Counted from the first letter of the stretch, positions 8,738 to 63,048 are shown. The stretch: 64,000 nt of DNA from a virus (IMGVR_UViG_3300022555_000030:1-64000); one strand, 5' to 3'. Made by a program: numbers and translations. Notes: generated by a model from the letters alone, not told the origin.

Positions 8738-8739
8738 AT

Positions 8740-18165: not shown

Positions 18166-21100
18166 ATGAAAGATTCTGATAGTCCATTTATAATAATATT
18201 GACAATAGTTATTATAACCCTTTTAAGTATATTAATTTTGAGTAAAGAGAAATCATCAATTTATTTTGAGCCTAATACTACTCATCTAATGTATAGATCT
18301 GTAGAAAATACAGGATATCGAGGAGAGGCTGAATATTACGTATTCGATGATAATGGAGTTAGGTATTTAGTAACACAAAAATATTTTGATTCTAGAGTAG
18401 ATTTGGAACGGAGATAATAATGAGTGATTATATAGGTATAATGAAATTTTATTGTGAAACTTGTAAATGTAAAACCCCTCATATAGAAGATACTGTAATT
18501 GATAGAGAAAGTTCTACTGTATGGCATTGTCTTTATTGTGGTACAGAATTTCGCCCTCGAGGCGGTAATGCAATGGTGCCTGCATAATAATAATTTGGAG
18601 TGAATAATATGCCTAATTGTAAATTTTGTATGAGGTATTCCTCAAAATGTAATGAAGATTTATTTGCGTTTGGTCATGACCCAGAAGAAGAATGTGATAT
18701 GTTTATTATTGATACTAGTAATGACAAGAATATAGATAATAGATGTAATTGTGGGTATTATCCACCACATTTAAAATCAAAATGCAAATATGGTGTAAAT
18801 AATAATGATGAATAAAGAATATAAAGAATGCGGGTTTATTCCAAATTATCATCTTATGCCTAGCAAAGAAGGTTATTTTATATGCCCTAATATAGGATTT
18901 TGTAATGAAAAGCACGAGGGTGTATGTGAATGCTTTGCATGTGACAGTATTTCATGCCAAGAATGCAGATACTGGGATAAATATGTAAGTAGTGCAGAAA
19001 AATTAGAAGATATATGGGAACATAATAAAAAAGAGAATAAAATAAATAAATTATTTTCTGAATTAGATGCTAAATGCCCCCATTTTGGTCAAGTATATAT
19101 GACAGTTAAAAATTGTTCAATATGTTATAAAGAATTAAAAAATAAATATAATATAAAATAATTTTTGCTATTTACTATATGATAGTATATTATTAGTATA
19201 TTAATATAAGGATTAAATAAATGAAAAAAAGATATTATATACTATTAATTATTGTATTGTTATTGGGTCTTATAATTAGTATAAGAACATGCTATCATAA
19301 CCACAAAGAAATATTAATATCTCCATTACCACCTATTTCTGAAACTATATTAGGTAATTATCAAAATCAAGAAACTGTAATAGTATTCTCTGTGCTATAT
19401 GATAATTATACACCTCCATATATTATAAATAATGATATATAAGATGATATACAATAGTATAGAAGACATCATAATAATGCTATTGCTCCTGTGGCATATT
19501 CTTCAGTACTATCATTGCCGGTGCCTAGTCCTGTCCCACCAGTACCTGAGCTTTCATCTTTGGTATTATTTGGGGCAGGGATACTTGGATTAGGAATTTT
19601 TATATATATTAAAAAGGATAAATAAAATGAAAAGAAAAATGAAAAAGATTAAGGTTCCTAGTGGTGCTACTTGCCATTATGAAAGGATTAACGGAGAATG
19701 GTATGTAGTATGGAGCGAAGATTTTATAGGAGATGATCCTGGTAAACAAAAAGTAGAATATTCTGAAGCGTTATATTTAGAAATAGGTTATCAAACCCAT
19801 GAACAAGAAAATAAAATTGTGGAATATTATTAAAAAAGGAGAAATAATATGAGTGGTGGGGTAGAAGATTCAGTAAAATATTGGGAAAATAAACAAAAAA
19901 AGTTCAATGATGAAGAAAAAAATATATTTACTGAAGAATATAGAATAAAATTTATACAGAATGCATTACAAAATAATTATATTGCTGCGCAATATATATA
20001 TTTTCTTGAAAAAAGAATAGAAAAATTAGAAATTAAACTTGGGGAGCGATAATAATACTATGGATAATTATACAGCACAAGAAAGTTTTGCGGAAGAACG
20101 TGCTTATTATCTTAATAAAAAGGATATTAAAAGACAAGCAAAGTTGGAATTGCTGGATGAGATGGAGAAGCCTTGCCCTCATGAACCATATAAATGCTTA
20201 GAAGTTAAAAGATGTGATTGTTATATCTGTTTAGAGGAAATAAGAAAGGAAATTACAGATGTCCCTTAAACATAGCTGTAATCACTGTGCCCGTCAAAAA
20301 ACCTGTCAAAAAATATCAAGCCCAGGTCAATACCATAAATGTTGGGAACCTGAAATCAGCCATTATACAATAACAGAGCATAATGTACTGCGTTCTACTG
20401 CATGGTTAGAAGCATCTTATGAAATATCGAAGGAACTAGGAAAAATTATAGAAAAGGATTTTGTGAAATAAATGTTTAGAAGAACTTTTACAAAAATAAG
20501 AGATTTCCCTCAAAAAGTAGAAAGATTTATTCAGCGTGGGAGACGTGGCTGGGCAGATTCAGATACTTGGGATATGCATTGCTATCTTATTAAAGTTATT
20601 ATACCTATGCTTAAATATTTAAAAAGTAATAACCATGGTTTTCCAGGTTCTTTAAAATCTTCAGATGAATGGAGTAATATCCTCTCTGAAATGATCTCAG
20701 GGTTTGAAGCAGGAAAGCGCGTATTAGATGATAATTATTTAGATGAAATACAACCTGGCTGGTGTGAGGCATCTAAAGAAACTAAAGAATTATTATCTGG
20801 ATTAAATATTAAACCATCTTCTCGCATAGAAGAGAGAAAACGTATGAAAGCTGATGAAAAACAATTTCATAAAGCGATGAGATTAATGGATAAATGGTTC
20901 TTTAATTTGTGGGATTAAAAATATGAAGATAAATTTAAATTAGAGAGTGGATAGGCATGAGGATATTGTTAACTGATGCAGAATTAATGGATAATCGAAC
21001 TAAAGCAGGAAAAGAGTATGCAGAATTATGTGAAGGAGTAGGGTATATTAATCCAATTACTCATATGAGATTAATACAAGAAATAACTGCTAAGGCACAA

Positions 21101-21844
21101 GTCATAAAGTTGCTAAATGAACTAAAGAAGAACTTTATACATGATTCTGAACATAAATTTCATTATTTGTTACCTGTTGAATATATAATAGAAATTACAA
21201 AAGAATTGGATAGTAAATGATGGGAATATTTGATGCTAATCTGCCACCAAATGAGCCTACATGGGAAGTTACTTACTCAGGAGAGAAGATTAAAAAGGAG
21301 ATAAATTAATGGAAGAGAAAGTAATTATTAAGGAAGAATATTTTCATTATAAAGCAGATTCTGGGCAAAAAAGACCGTATGTATATACTATTTGTACATT
21401 ATTAGATAATAATAATAATAATAAATTATTGGCGTTTGGTATATCAATTTGCTCTTGGAGAGATCAGTATGACAGAAAGAAGGGGAATAGAATAGCTAAA
21501 AATCGTGCATATATAGCATATGATGAGAAAAAGAATTCATCAATAATAAGAAAAGATTTAGCAGATATTATTGCATTCTATAATTTACCAGCATATAAAA
21601 GTGTATATATGGGATTCTAATAATGAAAAAGAATAAAAAGATTGTAAAAGCAAAAGTACCAAATAGGCGTAAAGGTTATAGAGGCGATTGGACAGAGGAT
21701 GGATTAGGCTTTTTATTAGATGATTATATATGGGTATTAAAAGAAATGCCAGAATATCGGGGTAATTCAGAAATAAAAACAATGATATTATGCCATGTAT
21801 CTAAATATGAAGAAACAATAAATAATTTAAAAAAGGAAAATTAA
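18166..21844 (+). CDS. Cluster of small hypothetical ORFs, many Cys-rich (includes untracked Zn-ribbon ORF 18420-18587)
   Basis: Tightly packed co-oriented ORFs with RBSs; CxxC pairs in several. Confidence 0.6.
19221..19625 (+). pseudogene. Signal-peptide protein with PEP-CTERM-like C-terminus, interrupted by two in-frame stops
   Basis: One frame reads signal peptide...NNDI*DDIQ*YRR...PVPPVPELSSLVLFGAGILGLGIFIYIKKDK*; TAA at 19440, TAG at 19455. Confidence 0.55.
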
Positions 21845-21855
21845 ACAGCAAATAA

Positions 21856-22293
21856 ATGGATAAAAATGAATGCTATAGAATATTAGGTATTAAAGTAGAT
21901 AGCTCTCAGGATGATATAAAGAGTGCTTATAGATTATTAGCGAAGAAATGGCACCCTGATATTAATAAGGAACCACATGCCGCAGAAGAATTTAAAAAAG
22001 TACAGAAGGCATATGATATATTAATAAATAGTAATAATAAAAATACAGCATATGCAGACATAAATTCTAATTTTACAGGATTTAATATTAATCTTAATGA
22101 AATATTCCAAAATATTATGAAAAATGATTTTTATAGTAATATTAATTATCATAAACAGACTACAAATATGAAGAAATGTACTATATTAGAACTAGAATTT
22201 GATTCTTTAAAAGAAGATGACACTAAAAAAATTATAGAAATTTTAAAAGAAAAAGGATATAATGTGATACTTCGTTCTATTATAAAATTATAA
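21856..22293 (+). CDS. J-domain (DnaJ-like) protein
   Basis: YRILG...IKSAYRLLAKKWHPD...EEFKKVQKAYDIL with the HPD motif. Confidence 0.9.
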   Translation: MDKNECYRILGIKVDSSQDDIKSAYRLLAKKWHPDINKEPHAAEEFKKVQKAYDILINSNNKNTAYADINSNFTGFNINLNEIFQNIMKNDFYSNINYHKQTTNMKKCTILELEFDSLKEDDTKKIIEILKEKGYNVILRSIIKL

Positions 22294-22384
22294 TTAATTA
22301 CATAACTTTTTTGCTTTTTATTAATAAATACTATAATACATTTATAAAGATTAATTAATAATAAATAATTAAAGGAGAAAAGAA

Positions 22385-23344
22385 ATGACTGCATATGTTG
22401 AATCAATGGCATATTATGGTGAAACTCCATGGCATAATTTAGGTACTAAACTAGATAAACCTGCAACTTCAGAAGAAGCAATTATTGCTAGTGGTTTAAA
22501 TTGGGAAGTAGTAAAATATCCTTTAACTATGGAGAAAGATAGTTCTACTAGTATTAGAGTCCCAGGATATTATGCACTTACACGTAAAGCTGATAATCGT
22601 ATATATAATATTGTAAAAGATAGATATAACCCTCTCCAAAATCGTGATGCATTTAAATTTTTTGATGATGTTGTAGGCAAGAAATTAGCTATTTATCATA
22701 CTGCTGGATCATTAAAAAATGGGGCAATTGTATGGATTCTTGCGCGATTAAGTGAATGTATTAAAGTTAAAAATGATGCAATAGATGAATATTTACTTTT
22801 AAGAAATCCTCATGATGGTTCTGGTGCGGTTGAAATGTTCTTTACACCTATACGAGTAGTTTGTTGGAATACTCTTGCAATGGCAGAGTCAAGCACAGTA
22901 AATAAATTTTATGCAAGGCATACTACGAATATGATGTCTAAAATCCAGGATGCACAAGAATTATTACAATTATCACAAAAATATTTCTTAGAACAAGAAG
23001 AAAAATATAATTTCATTGCTGGCAAACAATTAACTAATAAGCAATTAGATGAATTAATTAGAACGGCATTAAATATTACTGAAGAAAAGGAATTTGAAGA
23101 TATTTATGGCCCAATGAAAAGAGAATATGAAAAAGTACAAGAATTATTAGAAACTGGTCGTGGATTAAATAATCCTGAAATCCGTGGGAGTGCTTATTGG
23201 GCTTATAATGCAGTAGTAGAATATGTTGATTATTATAAGAATATTCGTGGTAATGATAAAGAAGATAAAAGATTGTATTCTGCTTGGTTTGGATCAGGAA
23301 ATAATATTAAAAATAGAGCATTAGATTTTGCATTGGCAGTATAA
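22385..23344 (+). CDS. DUF932-family phage/plasmid protein
   Basis: ETPWHNLG...LNWEV...YNPLQNRDAF...TAGSL...HDGSG...TPIRVVCWNTL...AYNAVVEYVD...WFG. Confidence 0.85.
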   Translation: MTAYVESMAYYGETPWHNLGTKLDKPATSEEAIIASGLNWEVVKYPLTMEKDSSTSIRVPGYYALTRKADNRIYNIVKDRYNPLQNRDAFKFFDDVVGKKLAIYHTAGSLKNGAIVWILARLSECIKVKNDAIDEYLLLRNPHDGSGAVEMFFTPIRVVCWNTLAMAESSTVNKFYARHTTNMMSKIQDAQELLQLSQKYFLEQEEKYNFIAGKQLTNKQLDELIRTALNITEEKEFEDIYGPMKREYEKVQELLETGRGLNNPEIRGSAYWAYNAVVEYVDYYKNIRGNDKEDKRLYSAWFGSGNNIKNRALDFALAV

Positions 23345-23867
23345 AAATGATATTAAATGAATTTGAGGGTAAAGGAGAATGGATAAGAAAAATTGCACTA
23401 CATGTATTCATTGGAAAGGGCGTACAGATTTAAATAAGTGTAAATTAAAACCAAATATTATACCTAATTGGTCTAATCCTAATTGTATAGATTATAAAAC
23501 AATTGAAGGACAAATAAATGGGATTAAGAGATGAAATAGCCAAACTGACGAAGGAGAGAGAATCCAATGACAGACGAACAACGGATAGTTTACGTTAATG
23601 CCAAAATTGCTTCCATGTTGGTCGAAATGAATGCCATGATAGCAGAGAATCAGGATAGAACAAACCACGGAGAGGCTCAGGCGTGGGGTTATAAAGAGTT
23701 TATGGAACTCCAAGAAAACTATGGTATGCAAGAAAACACCCTGACGAAAACTTTACTTGGTGGGTCTTAAGTGAAGGAATAAAACAGGGTTGCGTATCTG
23801 CTAAGCACGTACACTAGGTTTTGAAGTTTCTGGTAGAGTCGGTTATTCAATAGATTTTACTAAATAA

Positions 23868-24047
23868 CCAGAAAACTGGCATGGATTAGCGCCTGAGCAT
23901 GAAAGGCAAGCTAATATTATTCTTGCTCTTGTATTAGACGAGTTGGAAACTTATTGTCCTCATTATCCTGATATTAGCAGTACAATACGAAAAAGATTTT
24001 GTACAGAATGTTTAAAGGAAATAAGAAAAGAGATTGAAAATGAATAA
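23868..24047 (+). pseudogene. Start-less copy of the LDELxxPCPH...CxxC paralogue family
   Basis: After an in-frame TAA at 23865 the frame reads ...VLDELETYCPHY...RFCTECLKEIRKEIENE*. Confidence 0.5.
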
Positions 24048-24431
24048 GATGATAAAAATAGAACGATTACGGAAAGCTTTGATAAAAGACTTTAATAACT
24101 TATATGTTAAAGAATTTACTACTGATTCACAAATCCAAAGGGTTATAAGACAAGTCGAGATTAATATAATGCCTTTAGATAATGTTATGAAGCTTATTAA
24201 CCCTAAAGAGACTAAGAATGTCTAAAATAATACCAGACGATATGGATATGTGCGGAAGATGTTATGAGGTCGTTAGTAAAGTATTTACAGCTAACTGTAG
24301 TGAGAAACCTGAACTATTAAAGGGACAACCTTTAGGACAGTATCATTGCCCCGATTGTGGTGCTATGATTATAGCTGGAATAAAACACCCACCTATGTGT
24401 AAAAAATGTATAGATAGAAAACATCCAATGT

Positions 24432-24791
24432 TTGATGAGAGAAATTAAATTTAGGGCATGGGATAAAAAACACAGCAGAATGACTCCTATTATAGCATTA
24501 GGTCTTTTATCGAAAGAAGCAGTTGGTGATTCTTGTACTTTGAAATTTAACAAAGATTGTGAGCTTTTACAATATACAGGACTAAAAGACAAGGATGGTA
24601 AAGAGATTTATGATGGGGATATCGTCACACACGGATTCCAAAGCAATCCAACTAAAATTTATTGGGATAATTTCAATGGTAAATGGGTAAGAACCAGTTA
24701 CACAGGGATAACTCAAGGTGATATGGAATTAATGGGTAAAGTCATCGGCAACATTTATGAAAATCCAGAATTAGTTGATAAGGAGGAATAG
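24432..24791 (+). CDS. YopX-family protein
   Basis: REIKFRAWDK...LLQYTGLKDKDGKEIYDGDIV...VIGNIYENPELV. Confidence 0.9.
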   Translation: MMREIKFRAWDKKHSRMTPIIALGLLSKEAVGDSCTLKFNKDCELLQYTGLKDKDGKEIYDGDIVTHGFQSNPTKIYWDNFNGKWVRTSYTGITQGDMELMGKVIGNIYENPELVDKEE

Positions 24792-27700
24792 AGATGAAAG
24801 TGGAAATAATAATACCAGACGGAAAATATTGTGATGGTTGCCAATTATTTGATAACGGTTCGAGTTATGAATATTCCTGTTGGTGTAATTATATTGACAA
24901 AAGCCTTGAGACAGTATACGATGGCGGTTTTGTTAAGAAAACTCTTAAGCATTCCAAATGTCCAAGTTATGAGGAGTATAGAATGGATAAGTATTTATTG
25001 GAAATAGTAGCAAGGACTATATACGATTGGTTTGGAGACGAAGATACAGAATGGAAAGATGTAGGAGAAGTTACTCAGGATAGATTTACTGATGCCGCAG
25101 AGTCAGTTCTTGCTAAAGCCGAGCCATTAATCAGACAGGAAACTGTCAAGGAGGAGTAGAGAATGATTGAGATTAAATCAAGGTTTACAGGTGATGTAAT
25201 TGTTTCAGGAGATTATCAATCAGTCGGGGAATGCCTCGAAAAAAACAGAGGTGCTTGTCTCAGAGGCGCTGATCTCATAGGCGCTAATCTCAGAGGTGCT
25301 AATCTCGGAGGCGCTAATCTCGAAGACGCTAATCTCGAAGACGCTAATCTCGTAGGCGCTTATCTCGGAGGCGCTAATCTCGTAGGCGCTTATCTCGTAG
25401 GTGCTTATCTCGTAGGAGCTGATCTCAGAGACGCTGATCTCAGAGGTGCTGATCTCGTAGGAGCTGATCTCAGAGACGCTGATCTCGGACGCGCTAATCT
25501 CATAGATATAAAAAATTACTCTCAAAATCACAGTATATTTGTGGAATTAATCCACAAACAAAAAGCAGACATATTTACAGAAGCGGAATGGTCTGCTATT
25601 GCACAAATTATGATATATACTCTATGTTGGGGTTCCATACGAAAGCGGTTTGCTAATGCCATCCCTCATGTATTTGAGATATTGGCTCATGCAGGTTGGA
25701 GAGAATATCTTGACCACTGGAATAAATTAGTTAAGAAAGAGGAGTAGAGAATGGATAAGATTTTATTGACTGATGAGGAACTAATAAGTATAACTGATGA
25801 GACTTGCCTGAGACACAACAAAACATGGAATGACATTGAGAAACTTGATGAGTGTAATCTAATTATTGATCTATACGAATCAGCCGCCAAAGCTCAACAT
25901 ATCAAAACAGCTAAGGCGATATTTGATGAGTTAAGAAAAGTCAGGCAGGTACGGTTAACTGATAAATATTTACCAGAAATCTTTTTTGATGCGCCCAAAT
26001 TTAATAGGATAGAACAGTCATTTTTTGGAGGGTAAATAGTATGTGCGAATGTATAGAATTGGTAACTAAGGCCGGATACGTAGGTAAATCTATTTTAGGC
26101 CACCAACCGAATTATCTTCTATACCCCTTAGAGTTCAAAAATGGGAAAGTAAAAGTTAAGAAAGACCCATACTTATTCATTACATATTGCCCTGTTTGTG
26201 GTAAACAGTTATTGGAGGATAAATAGATGAGCAAGTGGCGACCTGAGGGATGGCCAGAACCACGTTGTGTTGATTGTCCAGACAAAGCTGAAGATCAATA
26301 TGGACTACTTTGTAATCTGTCATGCGGTGTGGAATCACTGGATAAAATGTATGAAGCTGGTGCTGATGCCATGCTAGCGGCATTGAGGAAAGAGGGCTAT
26401 GGCAGAATGGTAACAAAAACAATACCGCCATATCCTCAGAGAAACTTTGCGGATGGAGAATTTACACCAGGTTGTGGCCATGAAAGCCATGTAACATATT
26501 TTGAAAAGTTGGAGGGGAAATAGATGGTGATATTGCTGGATAAGAAAGAATTTAGGAAAGTACTAAATGAATGCTCAGTATGGGAAGGAAAATACGACCC
26601 CTTGCTCAAAGCTCAAGCTCTCAAGGTACTGGATGAGCTGGGGAAACCGTGTCCACACGTTCATAAGATTTTGCCAAATAGACCGAAAAGAGCTTGTGAA
26701 GAATGCATGGCGGAAATTAGCGCGGCATTGGAGGGTAAATAGTATGGAGACGAGAGAGGAAATAGCAAAACATTTACTCGATTTAGTTACAAGATTCGAG
26801 TCAGATTTAGTTAGACATTTGTCGCCCAAAGTGCAGAAATCTATTGATTATCAGAAATTCACCTGGAAGACAATTTCAGAGTACCAAAAATCTTTTTGGC
26901 TAGAAGAAGCTGATAAGGTAATTAAGTTGAGAGATAAATAATGGATAAAATTCCTTGGTATGGCTTAATGCAAGATTCTATTCATGAGCAAAAAGGAAAA
27001 CTGATTAAGTGTACTCCAATAAGGAGAAATAAAATGTCTAATCTAATACTTCAAAAGCAAATAGCTGTAATGTTTACTGCTTTGTATTGGGGATTGTCAG
27101 AGAATGCAGCCCTAAATTTTTTTGATGATGCTTCTAAAACTCAAAAGCAAATGTTTTTGGACTATGCTGATAAAGCTATTAAAGAAGTGCGACAAGAACT
27201 TATTAAGGCAATATTTGAGGAATTGTCTAAACCATGTCCTCATCCAGTTAATAAAGGTTATCCAAAACGAGAATGTACTGTGTGTTGCAATAAATTAAGA
27301 AAAGAATTGGAGGGTAAGTAATGGAGATACTGCAAACTATATATGAGTTTACTAATAAAGAATGCGAAACAACCTGCGGTTTATACCATGTAAAATTAGA
27401 TAGTGGTGCAACACATTACCTATTACGTAATAATGATTCTGTGGCTGTAATAGCACATTACTTAGGGCATTCAGCAACAGAGTGTTTAAGTTTAATCATA
27501 GACGATGTAAAAAAAAGAATTCTTCGATAGGTTGGAGGGTAAGAATGCTTACAGACGATGATATAATTTTGTTTGCTATATGCTTCATCAGCATATTGAT
27601 AGTTTTGATTATTATAGCTTGTAGAGTTGGAGGGTAAATAGAATGGAATTAATAAAAGTGCCAATGACTCATAAGGAACTATTAACTCTACCTATAGAAT

Positions 27701-29083
27701 TACAGAGAAAAATTATAGAGCGGCAAGTTGCGGAATTACAATCACTTAAAACAGGTGCATTATGTATAACCTGTTCAGAGATTATAAATTGTAAAATGCG
27801 TGATGCAGTTCAATATTGTGGTGGATTTAAACGAAAAAAGGAGGGTAAATAGATGAATAAAACACCAAAGAATTTACCCATATTGCATATCCATGAATGG
27901 GAATATCCTAAAACTAGACACCATAAACTCATGCGTAAATGTAAATCATGTCCTGTGATTGAAAAATTAAATGATAAAGCATTAAAGATTAAGGGTAAAT
28001 AAATGATGGGGATATTGTTGAGTGATGAGGAATATGAAATAGCCCATAAAGCTGAGGGACATTCAAGAACATTTATAAATTCGTGGACAGTACAACCATA
28101 CTTAAAAGCCCAAGCCTTGAAGTTGTTGGATGAGTTGAATAAGCCTTGCCCACATGAAACATACGCAAATATAAAAAGAGAATGTGAGGAGTGCATGACA
28201 GAAATCCGAAAGGAGATTGAAGATGTGGGCTAAATTGTTATGCAAGCTGGGTATCCACTCTTACGGAGAGTGGGAAACAGTCAAAGTAGCAGATGTCCTG
28301 TATTGGCGAGCCTGCAGGCGTGGATGCGGTTGTAGAGAAGTAATTATGCTGGAGGGTAAATAGAATGGAAAATGTAACAGTAATTTGTGACAGATGCAAG
28401 AAAAAAGTTCATGGCACAGAAAGCCCAGGTACAACTGGTGGGTTTTATCGCCGTGCAGCATGGTTTATGTACATGGAAGATGGTGAAAATATAATCTGTG
28501 ATGAGTGTATGTTTGCGAATCCAGAATATACAAAGATTTTCGGTAAACATGAAGCCAAGATTGGGAACCTTAATCATCATTTCAAGACATTTGAAGGGTA
28601 AATAGATGAATCAACGAACAGGTAAAGAGTGTAAAAAGATAAACTGTAAATACTATAAATACTATTCTAATTGGTTTAGTAATTTAGGACAAAGAGAACT
28701 TGAAATTTGTATGAATTGCCGTAACTCTCATTTATCTCAATATGTTAAGGAGTTGAAATAACATGTTTGAAAACCATATAAATGCTGGAAACAGGAGAGT
28801 AAAAGTGGAAGATTTTGATAAATTAAAAGCACAAAAGGATGAGATTGTATTACGGCAAATGGCAGATACGTGCCGTCTGGACTGGCTGGAAAAACAGGAC
28901 GGATGCGGTTTAATCAGTGACGATGCTGGAAGATGGGCGATGAACAAATGCGGATATCAGAACTACCTTAATCCTGATAAAACCATCAGCTATGCTAAAT
29001 CTTCCGTTTGGGTGGGAGCTCACGAATGGAAACCCTCAATCAGGGCGGCTATTGATTACGCTATGAGGGAGGGTAAATAGATG
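24781..29083 (+). repeat. Dispersed gene-junction repeat, consensus TTGGAGGGTAAATAG(A/T)ATG, plus a GAGGAGTAGAGAATG variant
   Basis: Copies at about 26027, 26214, 26511, 26730, 27309, 27534, 27629, 27840, 27991, 28351, 28591 and 29068; variant at 24782, 25148 and 25739. Confidence 0.85.
25163..25747 (+). CDS. Pentapeptide-repeat protein
   Basis: [11 protein letters not shown]-terminus followed by many A[DNY]LxG/D repeats. Confidence 0.9.
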
Positions 29084-30918
29084 GGGATATTACTTAATAG
29101 CAAAGAGCGTCTTAAAATTATAGGTGAGTCCAGAATCGGAAAGGGTGTTGACAATGTAATGAAAGCCCAAGCCATCAAGGTACTGAATGAGCTGGATAAG
29201 CCGTGCCAATATACATATACTTCTGCTGGGCATGCAGTAGAATACAGGCTGAAAAAGTATTGCCCTTATTGTATGACAGAAATTAGAAAGGAGATTGAGG
29301 GAATAAATAATGGATAATAATAAAAGTAATATATCATGCGATGAATGTAAGAAACTAATGAATTGTCCTCGGGATTATGTGCCAATTGATTTGCGCAAAG
29401 AAATGGCAAAAGAAATGGGCTGTTCTGACTATAAATTTGCCAGTGAAAGAAAATTTGCCAGTAAAAGAAAAAAATAAATAACCCATAAAATCAACCGCGC
29501 TGACTACCTGTATATCTTATATACGAATAATACACATACTTTATAAAAGCACAATTTCTCTTATAAAGTTTTTGCTATTTATTATTATAATATATAATAC
29601 ATATATATAAATTAATAAATTATATATATAGAGGATAATAATATGGATACAGAAAATTATATTCAAAGAATGCAAGAAATTAGAGATGGAATTGAATTTA
29701 AAATCGGCAAAAAATTAACCGCCAAGCAATGGGGAGCCATTTCATACCAAGCATATGAAGATGGCCATTATGCTGGTATGTCAGAAATAGTAAGCAAAGC
29801 AAAAGACTTAACTGAATTAGTAATAGATTTGTTAAAAGAATAATAATATGGATGAGGTATTTATATGCCATATGAAGTTAAGACTTATGATTGTGTATAC
29901 ATGACCCCAGAAGAAATGGGAATAATATTATATTTTATAGGTAATTATAATAAAAAGATATTATTAAATGCATTATTCGGGGATGAATTATTTATAATGC
30001 TAGCATATAAAAATTAAATAAATAAGGAGCAGATAAATGGCTAATAAACCCCAAAAAAGTAATGAAAAATATAATGTAATGATTGATGAATATAAGGGAA
30101 GTCCTATATTGCAAATATGGTCTGAAGAGAATTCACAATTCCCGGTAATATCATTTGGGATTAAAAGGGCTAGAGCAATACATAGTTGTATGCCTGATAT
30201 AGAGAAATTTATTCATGATAATGAGGCATAAATAAATGTCCAGAACTAACCGGGATATTAATCATAATATGTGTAAAAGATTACGCCGGGAAGGAGAATA
30301 TATGACTATAGACTGTTTAGAATGCCGGGGATGTCCTACACATACTACATTTCTTAGGAAAGAAGCAAATACAACTGCCAGAGCAAAGCAAAATAATGCA
30401 TTCAAAGCACAAACAGATGATCCAGAAATACCTATCTTTAAATCAGGAAAGGAATGATGGGATTAAATATTATAAATAATATATATAAAGCATTGATAAT
30501 TAATGCAATCCTGGATAATAAATTGGCCCTGGGGGCAGGAAATATGGATAAATACTTGGTCCAGGATCAAAAAATTAAGCAAAATATCAATAAGCACTCA
30601 AATAATGGCACAGACCACCTGCATATCTTATAAGAACAACTCATATAATATTTTCAAAAGCAGTAAGATTACAATAAATTTTTGCTTTTTACTATTATAT
30701 TTTATAATATATATATAAGAGTAAGAAAAGAAAGGAGTAATAAAATGTTAAGCCCTATTATTATTACAATCCATAAATGCCCTAAATGTAATTGTAATTT
30801 ATTCCTGGACAAAAAGAAATTAACCTGTGAATTATGTAATAAGGAGATAAAGAATAAATAATGAAATTAATTAGTATTGAAAGAAAAATAACAAAATGCT
30901 ATTCTAGAAGGAGTTATA

Positions 30919-31413
30919 ATGGGTGAATATTTTATTGCTACAGCACGTACGTATAGTTTTAGTGTGGCTGGTCATTCTACAGTAATTGCAAATGGTCTAA
31001 CAATGGATGAATGCATCATTAATGCTGAAAAATTTCTTATCCAACATCCTGGAGAATTTACTAAACTGATTGATGTATATGAAGCTAAACAGGTTGCCTA
31101 TAAAAGTAGCGAATGGCAGGATTTACGTCAAAATCAAAATGTTACATACAATTTTACAGACCTAATGAAAACGTATATCAAAAGAAAAGAATCATCTGTT
31201 TTAGCTAAAAAGATCGCGGAATTAAAATGTGAAACTAAATTAAATATGATTTGGCCAATTGGTGCATCCATAACTTGTGGTATATTAATGTTTGTTAATC
31301 ATAAAATTGATTATTTTGCATGGTTTATGGCTATAAGCTTGGTATTTTGTATTGCATCAATTTTTGAAAAATATAAAGAATACAAATATAAATTGTATAA
31401 ATTAAATAGATAA
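30919..31413 (+). CDS. Hypothetical protein with two C-terminal TM helices
   Basis: Hydrophobic segments near the C-terminus; downstream of the promoter at 30682. Confidence 0.5.
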   Translation: MGEYFIATARTYSFSVAGHSTVIANGLTMDECIINAEKFLIQHPGEFTKLIDVYEAKQVAYKSSEWQDLRQNQNVTYNFTDLMKTYIKRKESSVLAKKIAELKCETKLNMIWPIGASITCGILMFVNHKIDYFAWFMAISLVFCIASIFEKYKEYKYKLYKLNR

Positions 31414-31432
31414 AAACAGGAGGAATAAATAA

Positions 31433-31783
31433 ATGGCCAGAGATTATATGAATATTGGTTCAACCCCTGCTGGAGAGGAATGTGTCCAAGTCGGTACTTC
31501 CGATTATTATTCCAAGTCCATGAAAGAAGGTAAAGCATTCATAAATCAATTAACTAGAATGTTTGGTGATCCATCAGAATATAATTGTTCATTCCGGGTT
31601 AAAGCATTCCCCCATGATTTCGGTACATATCATGAAGTTGTTGTCTCATATAATGACGAAAATGAAGACGCTTGCCAATTTGCATATAAGGTTGAAGCCG
31701 AAGCTCCTGAGTATTGGGATAATGAGGCAAAACTTGAATTACGAATACTAGAAGTAGCATTCCCAACAAAGGAAAGTAAATAA
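31433..31783 (+). CDS. Conserved-looking phage hypothetical protein
   Basis: AGGAGG RBS; IGSTPAGEECVQVG...FPHDFGTYHEVVV motifs. Confidence 0.6.
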   Translation: MARDYMNIGSTPAGEECVQVGTSDYYSKSMKEGKAFINQLTRMFGDPSEYNCSFRVKAFPHDFGTYHEVVVSYNDENEDACQFAYKVEAEAPEYWDNEAKLELRILEVAFPTKESK

Positions 31784-31863
31784 ACTTTTGCTATTTATGA
31801 ATCATATATTATAATAATAATGAGCTTGGAGTGATACACCAGGCTTCATAGTTACTCCTTTTT

Positions 31864-31906
31864 GGGAGGGTAGAGGAATGATATACCTTTGCCCTCTCAT
31901 ATTTTT
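31864..31906 (+). terminator. 13-bp hairpin with G-U pairs followed by a T-rich tail
   Basis: GGGAGGGTAGAGG / CCTTTGCCCTCTC then ATATTTTT. Confidence 0.55.
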
Positions 31907-32121
31907 ATGGGGGATATTAATTAATTAGGTACGGGATCTTAGACTACCTTCATATTTCCAGGGCTAGACTACCTGGCATTTCATATACGCGATATATCTA
32001 TAAAATTATTTAAGCCGGCATTAACTTGATAATATTTTTGCTTTTTATTATTATATTATATAATATTAATATAATAAATTAATAAATATTAATTATATAT
32101 TACTATATTAATAAATAAATT

Positions 32122-32272
32122 AATAATTTAATAAATTTTTGCTTTTTATTAATCTATTATATAATATATATATAAAGTGATTAATAAATAAATAAATAAT
32201 TTAATAAATTTTTGCTTTTTATTAATCTATTATATAATATATATATAAAGTGATTAATAAATAAATAAATAA
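32122..32272 (+). repeat. 73-bp-period tandem duplication of a promoter
   Basis: 32122-32199 matches 32195-32272; each copy has TTGCTT-N15-TATAAT. Confidence 0.85.
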
Positions 32273-32292
32273 AAGATGAGAGGAGAAAAGAT

Positions 32293-32592
32293 ATGACATT
32301 AGAGGAAAAAATTAATTATTATGCAGAACTCACTGCAAAAGCAAAACAATTCGAAGATATGAAAACTGCACTCAGCAAAGAACTTATTGCAACTATCAAA
32401 GGGATGGGATTGACTGAAAAAGAAACTGAAATATACATGGCGAAAGTATATCCAGTATCAAGAGATTATGTAGATGCTAATAAAGCTCGCGAATTATTAC
32501 CAGCTCCTTTGCTCTCTCAAATGATGAAAACAACTACATATGATTGTCTTAGAACTACTCGCAAGAACCTTGTTCCTTCCTTCGGTGACTAA
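32293..32592 (+). CDS. Hypothetical early protein
   Basis: Strong GAGGAG RBS after three tandem promoters; GAGGGGG/CCCCCTC hairpin follows. Confidence 0.65.
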   Translation: MTLEEKINYYAELTAKAKQFEDMKTALSKELIATIKGMGLTEKETEIYMAKVYPVSRDYVDANKARELLPAPLLSQMMKTTTYDCLRTTRKNLVPSFGD

Positions 32593-32642
32593 ATAATAAT
32601 AAAATGAGGGGGTGAAATTCCCCCTCAAGGAGTTATCAATAA

Positions 32643-32942
32643 ATGGATAATGTAACCAGGAATAGTCTTCAGAATATTATGAATGGTCTTACAGCCGAAG
32701 ATGTTAAAGAGGTTAATGAAATGCTCCGGGAAGTTATTAGTCGAAGTAATTACATTGCTAAAGGTAACTTCTGCATTGGTGATACAGTAGAATTTACTTC
32801 CCCTCGTACCGGTTATAATATAACTGGCACAATTATGAAGAAGAATACAAAGACTGTCCAAGTCAGAGTTATAGATGCTGGAATGTGTGATAGTCAATTA
32901 TGGAGAGTCCCACCAACTATGTTAAGAAAGGTGACAAAATGA
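32643..32942 (+). CDS. Small protein with SH3/KOW-like C-terminus
   Basis: FCIGDTVEF...TGTIMKKNTKTVQV...WRVPPTML. Confidence 0.5.
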   Translation: MDNVTRNSLQNIMNGLTAEDVKEVNEMLREVISRSNYIAKGNFCIGDTVEFTSPRTGYNITGTIMKKNTKTVQVRVIDAGMCDSQLWRVPPTMLRKVTK

Positions 32943-33462
32943 GTTTATTCCCTCAAAGCGGGTTTAAACATTCTAAAGAAGAGACTGAATCATGGAATAG
33001 ATATTGGGAAGTAACTAATGTTAAAGAAAAAGAATTTGAAATAGGCGAAGAAAAAATTTGTAACGATTGTATGCGTAGTCACGATGATTGCCCAGATTGC
33101 TGTGATGGAGATAAATATTGTAGTCCTGATTCTTATGAAAGAGATATGGATAAATAAGGAGAATAAATATGGAAGAGAAAAGAAAATTAAAGAAACCTTT
33201 ATGGATTAGAAAAGCAGTAATAGAACAGAACCCTTTAATGACTCCGCCATTATTTTATTCCAGGAAGTATACTCTAGATAATATGGATAAGACATTATTA
33301 ACTACTAGATATTCTTCCCCGGAAGATCTATTCCATTCAATGAATATGAATTAATAATCAATAAAAGAAAGAGGGGGGTATTAATGAATTAATAATTCTT
33401 TAGTATCCCCTTTTTTTATCTCATAATTGATAAATAGGATACTTATATATTATGAGCCGGTA

Positions 33463-33574
33463 GACTACCTATATATTATTGGCATATGGACTACCTACAA
33501 ATTATTAAGTGATAGACTACTTCATATTTCTTTAGCGCTGACTACCCGCATATTATTTCTAGCTCTGACTACCT
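33463..33574. repeat. Five GACTAC(C/T) repeats at 25-27 bp spacing
   Basis: Starts at 33463, 33489, 33515, 33540 and 33567; more copies at 29502, 31942, 31967, 38779 and 38865. Confidence 0.8.
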
Positions 33575-33914
33575 ATACTTCATATATGCGATTTGCTCAT
33601 AAAATTATTAAACCCAGGAATTATTAGATATTATTAAGCATTTATAAAGTTTTTGCTTTTTATTATTTAATTATATAATATATATATAAGATAGTAAATT
33701 AATAAGTTATATGAATATTTTAAATAATTTTTGCTTTTTATTAAAACATTTTATAATATTTATATAACAATTAGTTAAAGTACATTAATAAATAAATAAA
33801 GATTATAAAGACTTCAAGTAATTTTTGCTTTTTATTAATACAATATATAATATAAATATAAAGAATTAATTAAGAGCACAGTAAAGTATAAACGAAAAGT
33901 GGAGGGTATATAAA

Positions 33915-35033
33915 GTGACTATGATGTTAGGGGCAGATCCAGAATTTGAAGTTCAAACAAAAGGTGGTATATTCAAGAATGCTAGTGGTTTCTTCTCCAC
34001 TGATACTTCTGAGAAACTTGGCTGCGATGGGTGCAGTAACACAGGAGAACTCCGCCCAGCTCCAGGTGATGGCAAATTTGTTACTAATGAAATCAAAGGA
34101 CTATTAACTCGTGCTTTCCAACGTATTGGTGCTAACAATAGATTAATCGGTGGTTGTGGTGTTACTGTCTCCCTCGGTGGGCATATTCATCTTTCTGATG
34201 TAGCTCGTGACTCTACTATCCTGGCAATGCTTGATAAGTTTATTGCTATTCCTCTTAGACAAGTGTCTAATACTCGTATCCGCGATAATCATGGTTATGG
34301 TAGGCTTAGTGAATACAGAAGTCAACCCTGGGGATGGGAATATCGTGCTCCATGTTCTTGGATTATCCATCCTGCCATTGTTAAAGGGGTATTATTAACT
34401 GCTGAGTACATTGCAAAAGCCAAGACGGCTAACAGGACATTATTAGAATTTGATGATCTCTATAATTTTGTTGCTGAGACATCTCAAGAAGATATGCTCA
34501 CTGTTAAACGTTTCCAGCACATTGTCTATTCCTTAATACAGAATAACCGTAAAATTGAATCAATGGAAGTCTTTAATGGTTGGGGCTTTATGGACAATGT
34601 AGCAACCACGGTAATTCAAAGCAAGATATTCAGATTTGAATTCTCAAGTGATTACTTAATGGATCAAATTAATAGAGAGTTAGATTATACACGGATTAAT
34701 CTGTCCCATATTCTCCCTGTTGAAACAATCCGAATATGCGGTGCGTCTGATATTCGTGCTAACTTTGAACCGGCATTCTTTGTGCCTGTACGACTTCGCC
34801 CAGTGTTTCCTCTTTATGTGCAACATACAAAAGTATTGACTTGGGACTTGGATACTATTGGTATCACTCGAAAGTTAAGAGAAGTATATTCACCCGTAAA
34901 GATTGCTTCTATGCTCAATGAACTTCGACGTTATGCAAAAAGGAATTATTTTAAACTCAGTGAGAATAATACCTGCACAATTGATAGAGAAGCAATAACA
35001 ACTAAAAGAATAATTGAAGGAGTAACTGTATAA
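33915..35033 (+). CDS. phiEco32-like COOH-NH2 ligase (amidoligase type 2)
   Basis: LGADPEF, GCDG...ELRPAP, GGHIHL and YR.QPWGWEYR motifs; GTG start after GGAGG. Confidence 0.8.
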   Translation: MTMMLGADPEFEVQTKGGIFKNASGFFSTDTSEKLGCDGCSNTGELRPAPGDGKFVTNEIKGLLTRAFQRIGANNRLIGGCGVTVSLGGHIHLSDVARDSTILAMLDKFIAIPLRQVSNTRIRDNHGYGRLSEYRSQPWGWEYRAPCSWIIHPAIVKGVLLTAEYIAKAKTANRTLLEFDDLYNFVAETSQEDMLTVKRFQHIVYSLIQNNRKIESMEVFNGWGFMDNVATTVIQSKIFRFEFSSDYLMDQINRELDYTRINLSHILPVETIRICGASDIRANFEPAFFVPVRLRPVFPLYVQHTKVLTWDLDTIGITRKLREVYSPVKIASMLNELRRYAKRNYFKLSENNTCTIDREAITTKRIIEGVTV

Positions 35034-54722: not shown

Positions 54723-55175
54723 TTATTCATTAGTCATTCTTATCCAACCATATTGACAAATACATGAAGCATCAGCGAGATCTTGATTTGTAATTAAATC
54801 CCCCCATTTTGCTTTTGCAAATTCCATAATAGCTTCTTTTTGCACTTTGCCATTACCAAGTATTGATTTTTTCCAACTCGTGACTTCTACCGTTTGTACA
54901 GGAATATTATTAAGTACACAGGCAAATCTTACCGCGTCAACTACTGAATGAATAGCTAATGTCACTTTGATATTCTGAAGATATGGAGAATTTTCTACAA
55001 ATACCATATCAGGATTTAATACTTTAATAGCAGTTTTTACTTTTAAAAACATTTCATTAATACGCATATTTGTATCTTTATTATTTGATTCTATTTCAAC
55101 TCTAACATTTTCTCCATTATCAATAACAAATATTGCAATCTTTTTTGTACTACAGTCTATACCTGCTACTATCAT
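54723..55175 (-). CDS. RuvC-like Holliday junction resolvase
   Basis: IVAGIDCS, VFVEN, WKKSILGNGK..KE, DLADA. Confidence 0.85.
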   Translation of the reverse strand: MIVAGIDCSTKKIAIFVIDNGENVRVEIESNNKDTNMRINEMFLKVKTAIKVLNPDMVFVENSPYLQNIKVTLAIHSVVDAVRFACVLNNIPVQTVEVTSWKKSILGNGKVQKEAIMEFAKAKWGDLITNQDLADASCICQYGWIRMTNE

Positions 55176-55177
55176 CT

Positions 55178-55951
55178 TTATACTCCTATACTATGACAAA
55201 GTGAAAAATATCCACACCATTTTTCTCCGCACCACCAACCGCAAGGATTTGGAGGGAATATCCCTGAATTAATTTGCTTATCAATATTAATAATAAGATT
55301 TTTAAACCATTCAATATCATTAATAGTCTTAGATACATGAACTAATTGTATTTCAGGTACCTTCTTCTTTACTGCTACATGGAATGTGAATTCACGTTTT
55401 CCATTTAATAATGCATATGAATAAGGTTGTAGTTCTTTATTAGCATCATCTTGTGACATTGAACGACTTTTTAATTTATGATCTGCTGTTTCTCCTAATA
55501 ATTCTAAATCAATAAACCCCATAAAATGAATATCGCCTATATTAACATCCCTTCTTTGTTCTACTGCCAATGGACGTATCATAGGTGCAATCTTAGAATG
55601 ATATACCTTTAATGCATTTATAGTTTCATCTTTAAGTTCACCGGGGTCTTTATCTTCCCAATTAACTTTTTCTTCTATAATATCATTAAAGTCTTCATCA
55701 TCTTTTACTGCTTTAGTATTATTATCCCATGATGTTGAGAATGCATCTAACAAATCATTAGCAAGTAAATCATCCCCTGTTCTAATTTTATTTTCAAAAT
55801 TAGCTTTTAATGCTTCATGATAAGATGACCCTTGCACAAGTGCGCCTGATGGTCTAATCTTTAACCCTTTAATATAACGAAATTCCCATTGTCGAGGACA
55901 ATGCAACATAGTCCCTATTTGTGAATTACTTATATACTCTGGTCTTCCCAT
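55178..55951 (-). CDS. Cas4/RecB-like PD-(D/E)XK exonuclease
   Basis: SNSQI...CPRQW, GFIDL...DHK, C-terminal C..WC...WC......C Fe-S-type Cys cluster. Confidence 0.8.
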   Translation of the reverse strand: MGRPEYISNSQIGTMLHCPRQWEFRYIKGLKIRPSGALVQGSSYHEALKANFENKIRTGDDLLANDLLDAFSTSWDNNTKAVKDDEDFNDIIEEKVNWEDKDPGELKDETINALKVYHSKIAPMIRPLAVEQRRDVNIGDIHFMGFIDLELLGETADHKLKSRSMSQDDANKELQPYSYALLNGKREFTFHVAVKKKVPEIQLVHVSKTINDIEWFKNLIINIDKQINSGIFPPNPCGWWCGEKWCGYFSLCHSIGV

Positions 55952-56251: not shown

Positions 56252-56790
56252 TATTTTGAACCATCTCTTATTATTACCCCGGCTTCTATTAGAAGATCAT
56301 ATCCAGTAATACCAACTTGTTTATAAATAACAGGTTCTCCTTTTAAAATAACTTCTTTAATGCCGGCATTAATAATAAGTTTAGCACATTCCCTACAGGG
56401 CATAATTTGAGAATTAATATATATTGCTGAATTATCAATTTTTACACCATTTCTTGCTGCAAAGACTATTGCATTAGCTTCTGCGTGAGTAGCAGAACAG
56501 TATTCTAATCCTTCCCCGGATTTATAACCCATCCTTTGTCGTGGACATTCAAATTTCGGTTTATATACACTATGAATAAAATCGTTTAAAGTCTTTAATT
56601 TGGCCCATTCCCCTCTATCATTACGCCATTCACAATGCATTATCCCAGATGGTGGCCCATTATATCCTGTACTTAATATCCTTCTATTATTAACTATTAT
56701 ACATCCAAGGTTTCGTGATAAACAGTGAGACTTTTTAGATACTTCATCTGCTATATTTAAAAAATATTTATCCCAAGTTAAGTTGTCCAT
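56251..56790 (-). CDS. dCMP deaminase
   Basis: LSTGYNGPPSG, HAEANAI, PCRECAK. Confidence 0.92.
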   Translation of the reverse strand: MDNLTWDKYFLNIADEVSKKSHCLSRNLGCIIVNNRRILSTGYNGPPSGIMHCEWRNDRGEWAKLKTLNDFIHSVYKPKFECPRQRMGYKSGEGLEYCSATHAEANAIVFAARNGVKIDNSAIYINSQIMPCRECAKLIINAGIKEVILKGEPVIYKQVGITGYDLLIEAGVIIRDGSK

Positions 56791-57784
56791 CTACTATTCC
56801 TTCTTCTTTATTTACTTTCTCAAGTTTTGCTACTTCACCACGTAATGCTGCCCGTAATTTATCACAAATTTCTGTATTGCCTGTAAGTGCTTCTCGTAAT
56901 TTTAATTTCCCATGAATTTTTTCACCAAATAAATAATATGATGCTCTATCATGAGGAATAATATTATTTTCAAGGCATATTTCTATTAACCCGCCAATAG
57001 AATCTATCATACCACCTTCATAAATAAAAGGCAATTCACAACTTTGGAATTGTTTACCACTAACTTTATCTTTTTCAAGAGTAATTCTTTGAGTAAATCC
57101 AATCTTTTTAGCATTATCATCTTTAATTGCTGAACCTCTTGATATAAACATCATTAAAGATGCAAAATCTTCTTGAGCTTTACCGCCTGGAATAGACTTA
57201 CTTGCAAATCTTCCTACACCTTCTCTAATATGATTTAATAATACTAATACTGAATTATGATTCTTTTGTTGTGCAAGTCTTATCCCTCTAGTATTACATT
57301 TAGCTATTTCAGTACCATATGATACATTCTCCATAGATGTATCAATAACCGTAGGAATAATAGCATCAAGACTATCCATAACAATAAGGTCTACTTCATT
57401 ATCAATAGCTTTATGAACATAATCCCATGCTTGTTCCCCATAATCTGGAATTAATATAGGAAGATCAGTAACATCCACACCAACAGTAGCACACCAATCG
57501 GGTTCAAAAGTCTTATCAATACAAACATATAATATTTTCTTACCAAGTTTTTGAACCATAGCAAATAATTTATAACAAAGAAATGTTTTGCCTACTGATC
57601 CTTCCCCATATATTAAAGTGAATCTGCCATAAGGTAATCCGCCATTTGTTAAATCATCTAGTAAATCAATACCAAAAGGAATTTTTTCTTTCTTTAATTT
57701 TTTATCATTACCAGTAGTTAATATCATACCTTTAATTTTCTTTTCTGATAATCCTTTAATTACATCATCCGCCATTGTCCCCAT
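56768..57784 (-). CDS. recA: RecA/UvsX-like recombinase
   Basis: GGLPYGR...YGEGSVGKT, IVMDS, LNHIRE, IPGGKA. Confidence 0.88.
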   Translation of the reverse strand: MGTMADDVIKGLSEKKIKGMILTTGNDKKLKKEKIPFGIDLLDDLTNGGLPYGRFTLIYGEGSVGKTFLCYKLFAMVQKLGKKILYVCIDKTFEPDWCATVGVDVTDLPILIPDYGEQAWDYVHKAIDNEVDLIVMDSLDAIIPTVIDTSMENVSYGTEIAKCNTRGIRLAQQKNHNSVLVLLNHIREGVGRFASKSIPGGKAQEDFASLMMFISRGSAIKDDNAKKIGFTQRITLEKDKVSGKQFQSCELPFIYEGGMIDSIGGLIEICLENNIIPHDRASYYLFGEKIHGKLKLREALTGNTEICDKLRAALRGEVAKLEKVNKEEGIVDGQLNLG

Positions 57785-62301: not shown

Positions 62302-63048
62302 TTAGAATAGGTCTTCTACTTCTTGGATACTAACCCCATCTTGTTCTTTAGTAGAAACATTATTAGTAGGTACTGTATTAGTAGCAGTAACGGTATCTTT
62401 ATTCCTATTCCCTATAACAATATCTTCAATAGTAGGAGCTTCTGCTTTTGCTTTCATAACTTCTTCAGACATCTTACTAGGGTCTTTAGGAAGGAATGAA
62501 TAATGGGTACTCATACTCTCCCCAGTTCTTGTATATTTATAGTCTCTATCACAAAGAGTACCATATTCATTTACAAACTGTATAATGGATTCTTTAATAT
62601 ACCCATCTTTACCAAACTTAGTCCTAAGAATACGTAAACCATTTACAGTCTCTTTATAAAATACTTGGTTCCCTTGTTTAATAGGTTCCCATGATATTGC
62701 GTTGCTATCTTTATTAAGTGCTGGATTTTGATTCTTATGAGCAATAGAATATACATATACCAAGAATACGTATACATTCCTAGCAATATTCCCTGCCGCA
62801 CACCATTTGCAAGGTGCACCAGTCAAATGTTCATAACAATAAGTATCTTTATATTTTTTACCAGTCACAGCAATTTCTTCATATTCATGAATTTTTGTTT
62901 GGAGCATTTGCTCATCATCAATAAATCTGATAAGTGCAGTTTCACCAGATTTAATCCAAAGAAAATTCATTCTATTAGGATTAGTTTGCTGCTGTTCTGC
63001 AGGCTCCTCTGCCTTTTCTTGTATACCCTTAAGACCTTTAATAAACAT
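62302..63048 (-). CDS. Single-stranded DNA-binding protein (gp32-like)
   Basis: FLWIKSGETALIRF...H...C..CKWC...RDYKYTRTG...THYSFLP with an acidic tail ending EDLF. Confidence 0.7.
   Translation of the reverse strand: MFIKGLKGIQEKAEEPAEQQQTNPNRMNFLWIKSGETALIRFIDDEQMLQTKIHEYEEIAVTGKKYKDTYCYEHLTGAPCKWCAAGNIARNVYVFLVYVYSIAHKNQNPALNKDSNAISWEPIKQGNQVFYKETVNGLRILRTKFGKDGYIKESIIQFVNEYGTLCDRDYKYTRTGESMSTHYSFLPKDPSKMSEEVMKAKAEAPTIEDIVIGNRNKDTVTATNTVPTNNVSTKEQDGVSIQEVEDLF

Follow-up and report, generated by a model that had tools for sequence, protein, structure and literature searches.

The subject of this work is a short stop-start joint repeated between very small genes of an uncultured gut-type phage (IMGVR_UViG_3300022555_000030), of which positions 1 to 64,000 were analysed; this 64-kb stretch is called the window. 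Several described systems come close to it. Integron attC sites are imperfect inverted repeats of ~57-141 bp that fold as hairpins. Linkers in the sense of Botstein are conserved sequences on either side of exchangeable modules, and they direct recombination to places where it is viable (Botstein 1980; Susskind and Botstein 1978; discussed in PMC2839356). T4-type phages carry the promoter-early stem-loop (PeSL), an element of ~100 bp made of a sigma-70-like promoter and a terminator stem-loop, with each cassette as its own transcription unit; mini-circles have been shown in PeSL recombination (Arbiol et al. 2010, PMC2839356; Comeau et al. 2014, PMC4122927). In Cluster K mycobacteriophages, the start-associated sequence (SAS) is a 13-nt asymmetric repeat of consensus GGGATAGGAGCCC with a Shine-Dalgarno (SD) core, located 3-7 bp upstream of the start codon. 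About half of the copies have an upstream 17-bp inverted repeat (extended SAS, ESAS). SAS copies are scattered over half a genome, tied to particular gene families and not linked to rearrangement breakpoints; they were proposed as the target of a translational regulator, a function that is unproven (Pope et al. 2011, PMC3203893). A literature search for stop-start or ribosome-binding-site (RBS) linkers in phages returned the PeSL and SAS work only. Within the literature searched, a stop-start joint used in the way proposed below has no description; it is kin to the known PeSL-type linkers.

At positions 24432-29477 of the window, 20 open reading frames (ORFs, named g1 to g20) lie back to back on the plus strand. 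The head of the array comprises g1 (YopX, 24432-24791), g2 (a fused ORF, 24794-25159) and g3 (a pentapeptide-repeat protein, 25163-25747). It is followed by g4 to g20 (25751..29477), cassettes of 30-126 amino acids (aa) each that are linked by the joint. We give a probability of about two in three to the reading that this junction couples translation and also serves as a short-homology linker for the exchange of cassettes.

The core of the joint is the 13-mer GGAGGGTAAATAG. It has 14 matches at up to two mismatches in the window, compared with 1.7 ± 1.2 in shuffled sequences. Eleven of the 14, from 26027 to 29080, are found at consecutive gene boundaries on the plus strand; no real copies were found on the minus strand of the window. 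Six copies are exact (26027, 26730, 27629, 27840, 28351 and 29068). The whole joint has the consensus TTGGAGGGTAAATAG(N)ATG and a length of 13-20 nt. Measured against the 15-mer TTGGAGGGTAAATAG, 11 of the 16 junctions from g4/g5 to g19/g20 show two mismatches or fewer, whereas the 70 other SD-bearing ATG starts of the window show at least four. The customary RBS elsewhere in the window is AAGGAGA followed by a varied A/T spacer. A preliminary description of this stretch had noticed a DNA-level junction at consecutive boundaries, found no copies elsewhere, and left room for a motif that is merely the preferred RBS of the genome. The first two points are borne out: neither GGAGGGTAAATAG nor the second joint type, GAGGAGTAGAGAATG, occurs outside the array at one mismatch or fewer in the window. 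The genome-wide RBS was rejected because the other SD-bearing starts are so distant from the 15-mer.

Each joint contains the SD core for the next gene and both a TAA and a TAG stop, in different frames; the ATG comes 0-1 nt later. The distance from stop to start is 0-6 nt, or the two overlap. In the TAG frame the joint is read as a C-terminal EGK followed by the stop (LEGK-stop), as in the genes ending at 26742, 27852, 28363 and 29080. In the TAA frame it is read as GG-stop or EG-stop (genes ending at 26035, 27637 and 28601). This two-frame reading had been claimed beforehand and is found at all the gene ends named. As two reading frames are used and only four to five of the genes are paralogous, the conservation is at the level of DNA and is not a leftover of duplication. 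The TTG and GTAAATAG that flank GGAGG add no complementarity to the usual Bacillota anti-SD sequence. Pairing with the rRNA would thus not explain the conserved bases.

The copies can be followed along the plus strand. Exact copies of the 13-mer separate g4 from g5 (26027..26039, with the TAA stop of g4 at 26033-35 and the ATG of g5 at 26041), g7 from g8 (26730..26742), g11 from g12 (27629..27641), g12 from g13 (27840..27852), g15 from g16 (28351..28363) and g18 from g19 (29068..29080). One mismatch is observed at g5/g6 (GGAGGATAAATAG, 26214..26226), g6/g7 (26511..26523) and g16/g17 (GAAGGGTAAATAG, 28593..28605), and two at g9/g10 (GGAGGGTAAGTAA, with overlapping TAATG, 27309..27321). A variant, TTGGAGGGTAAGAAT, lies at g10/g11 (27532..27546). 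Degenerate copies are located at g8/g9 (TTGAGAGATAAATAA, also with overlapping TAATG, 26927..26941) and g13/g14 (ATTAAGGGTAAATAA, 27988..28002).

The evidence for exchange comes from relatives. A second phage lineage was reached through a homologue of g18 with 89% identity, then through that lineage's own proteins. Its backbone has diverged: protein identity is 33% for YopX, 29% for ThyX and 68% for the pentapeptide protein, and several flanking genes are unmatched. It carries g2a, g4, g5, g6, g8, g9, g10 and g12-g18, with others, at 92-100% nucleotide identity. The cassettes stand there in at least seven other arrangements, one of them with a duplicated cassette, and the breaks fall in the junction. 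A fixed gene order with breakpoints unrelated to the motif, which the preliminary description had named as the contrary outcome, is therefore not what the relatives show.

The arrangements are as follows. Locus L058 reads g3' g2a-X g6 n63 g16, then a hybrid with the C-terminus of g7, then g8. L045 and L062 read g6 n63 g16, a hybrid with a p20039-like C-terminus, g18' and g19r. L059 and L061 have n63 g16 g13 g14 g15 g16 g17 g18, and L060 has n63 g16 g17. L055, L050 and L051 share n62 g8 g9 g4' g5' g16 hybrid g8, and L056 has n62 g8 g9 g10. Finally, g13 g14* g18' is preceded by g12 in L046 and by g16 in L047. Two cassettes that the window lacks, n62 and n63, represent gains, and g16 is duplicated in L059. 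The latter cassette has three different right neighbours (g17, g13 and a hybrid paralogue) and three different left neighbours (g15, n63 and g5'). Other genes also switch partners: g9 is followed by g10 or g4', g3 by g4 or g2a-X, g8 comes after g7 or n62, and g6 after g5 or g2a-X. The gain, duplication and shuffling of cassettes that had been suggested for this array are all found in these loci, as is the loss of cassettes. Locus L059 (g16/g13 g14 g15 g16/g17) is the filled form of the empty site seen in L060 (g16/g17). The four-gene block is flanked by direct copies of the joint, an organization compatible with an excised mini-circle and also with unequal crossing-over.

All 11 new adjacencies are seamless: they run through the junction with the usual joint spacing and without scars. 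In each, the sequence up to the stop is that of the left gene and the sequence from the ATG onwards that of the right gene, with a middle portion found in both. For L047, the zone of crossover is the 17-nt AGGGTAAATAGATGAAT, which the left parent (g16/g17) shares with the right parent (g12/g13); the g12/g13 joint is likewise the partner in the g16/g13 crossover of L059 and L061. Variants of the joint travel with particular genes. The A variant of g5/g6 remains with g6 in L058, the g16/g17 form accompanies g16 in all its other contexts, and the g9/g10 form leads to g4' in L055. In the latter locus, sequence identity changes in steps at the joints, from 99.2% to 92% and then to 96.7%. Breaks outside the joints are located in a 33-nt segment that paralogues share without a difference, in the common EIRKE tail, or inside g16 between alleles; the g16 of L060 is chimeric. 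The hybrids of L045, L050 and L058 are paralogues recombined in frame at conserved internal stretches. These breaks away from boundaries all occupy homologous positions, either within identical sequence of paralogues or between alleles, which shows that exchange guided by homology operates in this array.

All ORFs remain open in all variants. Most adjacencies were found again in two to five independent assemblies made with different pipelines, and several variants coexist in single samples such as ERZ27313100, ERZ27313106, ERZ27313109 and ERZ18627097. Assembly chimeras were rejected as an origin of the arrangements, which are replicated; moreover, the assembly k, to judge from contig names with k141, exceeds the joint in length by far.

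The head of the array contains the second joint type. Exact copies of GAGGAGTAGAGAATG, in which TAG and ATG share a frame, separate g2 from g3 (25151..25165, plus strand) and g3 from g4 (25739..25753, plus strand); in L058 the end of g3' leads into g2a-X. The preliminary description had this variant joining three genes. The copies at 25151 and 25739 bear this out in part, but the one at 24971..24985 (plus strand) carries TAT instead of TAG and falls within the ORF 24794-25159, so that two live boundaries remain. The boundary at 24780-24796 is merely a looser version of GAGGAGTAGAGAATG. To judge from the fossil joint, the g2 ORF is an in-frame fusion of two former cassettes. It consists of a Cys-rich half and a helical half, and in the second lineage the g2a half is joined to a different tail (148 aa). 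A second, independent fossil joint with the same TAG to TAT change is found in gene x of L055 (82-145), which continues through the lost stop to the following ATG. Since TAG and ATG share a frame in the joint, one substitution suffices for a fusion protein. The following stretch of L055 (146-283) lies between two joints, lacks an open frame of its own and has a normal joint at its end. It is probably a decayed cassette.

Transcription signals were also searched in and around the array. None of 13 inverted-repeat pairs detected in 24400-29700 lies at a joint or upstream of one, and direct reading reveals no dyad symmetry in the joint. No -35/-10 pair is present in the joint, and promoter-like sites in 18000-34000 number 95, compared with 98.6 in shuffles. 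No terminator-like site is found on the plus strand inside the array, and such sites show no excess over chance. A 15-nt motif, TTTTGCTTTTTATTA, has 11 copies in the window with 0.1 expected, all in non-coding gaps and often clustered (17215, 22309, 29570, 30680, 32036, 32137, 32210, 33651, 33729 and 33823 on the plus strand; 63946 on the minus strand). The motif probably represents the -35 side of an early promoter specific to the phage. Two plus-strand copies of this candidate promoter element bracket the array, at 22309..22323 before it and at 29570..29584 just past it. With none in the interval 22324-29569, the array probably forms a single transcription unit. The cassettes would then be without promoters of their own, as part of one long transcript.

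These observations suggest the following mechanism. The array would be a promoterless, one-strand chain of small accessory genes, forming a hyperplastic region in a recombination-proficient lytic phage. A stop and a start that overlap or stand 0-6 nt apart favour re-initiation. The proximity of stop and start at the joints thus argues for translational coupling: a ribosome finishing one micro-gene would start the next on the polycistronic RNA, whichever of the two upstream frames it has read. The joint is also the sole sequence common to otherwise unrelated neighbours, and could therefore provide short homology for ectopic exchange, within one genome or between co-infecting phages. Candidate machinery is encoded on the minus strand of the window: a UvsX-like (RecA-family) recombinase, the candidate exchange enzyme (56768..57784; phrog_97, E 8e-44), a RuvC-like Holliday-junction resolvase (54723-55175), a neighbouring exonuclease (55178-55951) and a single-strand DNA-binding protein (62302..63048). 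Strand annealing, UvsX-type invasion or template switching may be involved. Each exchange would give intact, expressible genes, so that cassettes could be inserted, deleted, duplicated, reordered and passed between phage lineages. The joint, copied along with each transfer, would remain uniform. At identical internal stretches of paralogous cassettes the same process would make in-frame hybrid genes, and the loss of an in-frame TAG by one base change would fuse neighbouring cassettes. We infer that joint homology drives the exchanges, rather than marking the sole viable places.

Several points weigh against this proposal. In the window's own strain, exact-protein look-ups found the gene order unchanged in 47-58 sample blocks, the sole exception being a length change of the pentapeptide-repeat gene. 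As these blocks keep one order, rearrangement is not frequent on short time scales. The new joint g9/g4' of L055 offers only 6 identical bases when the window versions of both parents are compared, and 13-20 nt is short for RecA-type exchange. Every boundary of the array carries the joint, so random joining followed by selection for intact genes predicts the same breaks. Allele differences in the cassettes are distributed 16/18/14 over the three codon positions, with 12 synonymous and 32 non-synonymous codons; given the lack of a third-position excess, purifying selection on the proteins is not demonstrated. Finally, the motif, RBS and integrase scans cover the 64-kb window of an 88,294-bp genome, and the comparison with the second lineage, whose long contigs measure 76,449 bp (in ERZ1426811), 44,019 bp (in ERZ1426813) and 11,860 bp (in ERZ1426812), covers its other contigs.

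Some of these points are shared with the best surviving alternative, in which the joint is a translation signal only. Recombination would then be random and illegitimate, survivors would be those broken at gene boundaries, and the coincidence with the joint would be a by-product. This is the mainstream view of phage mosaicism (PMC3974807). Viable breaks must fall in the joint if all array boundaries carry it, and the 6 nt of identity between the available parents of g9/g4' are what such joining would leave. We nevertheless consider it unlikely. Working RBSs elsewhere in the phage are varied, so the exact 13-15 bases are not needed for translation. All 11 of the new adjacencies are seamless with unchanged spacing, the variant joints behave as chimeras of left and right parents, and the breaks that avoid boundaries are all at the homologous positions mentioned above.

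A further alternative is that the extended conservation marks an mRNA operator, bound by a phage- or host-encoded translational regulator of all the micro-genes, shuffling being secondary. T4 RegA is a known translational regulator of this sort. An asymmetric motif of 13-15 nt with an SD core, placed just upstream of the ATG in one gene class, has the anatomy of SAS (PMC3203893), and the conserved bases exceed what rRNA pairing explains. SAS and the joint also share a single orientation, an association with non-structural genes and absence elsewhere in the genome or, for the joint, elsewhere in the window. The joint differs from SAS by its consensus (TTGGAGGGTAAATAG), by an ATG only 0-1 nt after the motif and by the lack of upstream inverted repeats. 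It recurs as a contiguous series that overlaps stop codons, and the breakpoints coincide with it. No candidate regulator was identified, the motif also has to specify the C-terminus of the upstream protein, in either of two frames, and an operator alone leaves the rearrangements and the sharing of cassettes across lineages unexplained. As the whole explanation, an operator therefore appears improbable. It is compatible with a joint that couples translation and acts as a linker.

An integron-like or other site-specific system, with a dedicated recombinase or nuclease moving cassettes as circles, is very improbable. The likeness to integrons is real: promoterless small genes in one orientation, variable order and content, one repeated bounding site, and a pool shared across replicons. 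The relation of L059 to L060 also resembles the insertion of a four-gene unit between direct copies of the joint. However, no tyrosine or serine recombinase, of IntI type or other, and no other integrase was found among 50 of the larger ORFs, scanned in the 64 kb, nor among the array genes, in agreement with the preliminary description. The site of 13-20 nt lies within coding and RBS sequence, has neither dyad symmetry nor stem-loop nor an attC-like imperfect palindrome, and is far shorter than attC. Crossovers are also found at other common sequences, as predicted by general recombination, and exchange appears to use general homology.

The joint as a remnant of the tandem duplication of one ancestral micro-gene, with coding parts diverged beyond recognition, has next to no likelihood and was rejected: four to five cassettes are clear paralogues and a repeated local joint goes with duplicated genes in the more distant phage L048 (see below), but the best-conserved paralogue cores are 71-78% identical in DNA while their junctions are identical at 13 of 13 positions, two reading frames are in use, the cassettes are heterogeneous in length (30-126 aa) and GC content (0.27-0.475), and no similarity was found among the other genes.

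The paralogues form a family of ~75 aa, composed of g7 (26524-26742), the C-terminal part of g9 (g9 itself spanning 26941-27321), g14 (28003-28233), g19 (29081-29317) and two ORFs further upstream (20039-20269 and 23943-24047). Their pattern, KAQALKxLDEL-KPCPH...CxxC..EIRKE, has no match in Pfam or PHROGs. The remaining genes show no mutual similarity, and the non-paralogous cassettes linked by the joint are ORFans. Pfam, PHROGs and ESM Atlas gave no function for the cassettes, except for YopX and the pentapeptide-repeat protein, and no homologue of g16 was found outside its own 90% cluster. GC content is 0.368 in 25751-29317 and 0.299 in the rest of the window, which agrees with the GC-richness perceived by eye; from gene to gene it is uneven. 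The pentapeptide-repeat gene contains a run of 15-nt units (25203-25547), a contingency-like repeat in what is possibly a DNA-mimic protein. Its product has 194 aa in the window, 179 aa in L044 and 159 aa in the second lineage.

The closest parallel is with PeSL. In each system a short conserved element recurs between small ORFans, in a plastic part of the genome, and the phage itself encodes recombination functions. In both, insertions, deletions and replacements among relatives (here, the 11 new adjacencies) are bounded by the element, and no integrase is involved. Both elements also give expression signals to the following gene, and PeSL too was interpreted as a Botstein-type linker. In contrast with PeSL, the present joint has only 13-20 nt, has neither promoter nor stem-loop and overlaps the upstream coding end. 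Any action it has would be on translation, inside a single long transcript. The present phage falls outside the T4-like group, and the closest polymerases to its own are from phages of gut Clostridia. The joint is best read as a translational analogue of the PeSL cassettes of T4-type phages, an analogy drawn from the comparison. It also departs from Botstein's linkers, a concept made for multi-gene functional modules in lambdoid phages, in that single micro-genes are the modules of this array and a stop-start joint links them.

The array was also searched for elsewhere. In IMG/VR, the exact 15-mer was found once in each of 30 contigs, none of which has an array; a scan with the paralogue alignment gave no relatives, and relatives of the neighbouring DUF932 gene (27-43% identity, L031-L041) carry no repeated joint. 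In JGI metagenomes, the g16-specific joint gave 0 loci and the general joint plus ATG 29 loci, each with a single match. A rescan of all loci for near-matches detected arrays in this phage group only, and an INPHARED blastn search with the array matched the YopX gene alone. The sample accessions gave no publication in the literature searched. A more distant phage, L048 (JGI contig Ga0172380_10000574), has a g18 homologue of 56% identity outside any such array. At 8132-9977 a local joint of this phage, AAGGAGTGTTGAGCTAAG-ATG, precedes four adjacent genes, among them repeated genes of 163 aa and 116 aa; there the local joint accompanies tandem duplication.

Proteins of the window are also located on an 88,294 bp contig, the longest for this phage. 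PHROG matches in the window include a portal, a large terminase, a family-A-type DNA polymerase, a ribonucleotide reductase and a major head protein. Further matches are a primase, the single-strand DNA-binding protein, a thymidylate synthase, a dCMP deaminase, two exonucleases, the RuvC-like resolvase and the UvsX-like recombinase. The nearest relatives of the polymerase are from phages of gut Clostridia and human faecal phage contigs (44-49% identity). A low-GC Bacillota host would fit the strong GGAG-type ribosome sites. Away from the array, in an 864-aa protein (6143-8737), a Hint/intein-like segment occurs together with DUF5661 and a prohead-protease (S78) segment. The 1500-aa ORF that comes next (8740-13242) shows, at its C-terminus, no more than a weak DRAT-like (ADP-ribosyltransferase) hint. 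Neither gene is present at the corresponding place in the second lineage. In the large subunit of ribonucleotide reductase (51743-54637), residues ~518-634 match HNH endonuclease families, which suggests an intein or a homing-endonuclease insertion.

A broader interpretation is possible, and we put it forward as tentative, at less than an even chance. The array would belong to a 'translational cassette' system that works without an integrase. Its micro-genes, probably serving host takeover or anti-defence, would form a communal pool and move between otherwise distant phages by short-homology recombination at a portable joint. The joint would end two of the three upstream frames, re-initiate translation and persist by travelling with the transfers, and losses of TAG would make multi-domain proteins. 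Such a joint is a natural design for frame-tolerant polycistronic linkers. If true, translational cassettes would be direct evidence for Botstein-type linkers at the scale of single genes. Whether phage mosaicism results from homology at conserved linkers or from random joining followed by selection is the question for which this array offers a compact natural test case, with ~20 unrelated genes, one 15-nt joint, at least eight arrangements in real populations and two diverged backbones. It also suggests a rule for annotation: identical stop-start joints may flag hyperplastic accessory arrays, a likely home of anti-defence and host-takeover genes.

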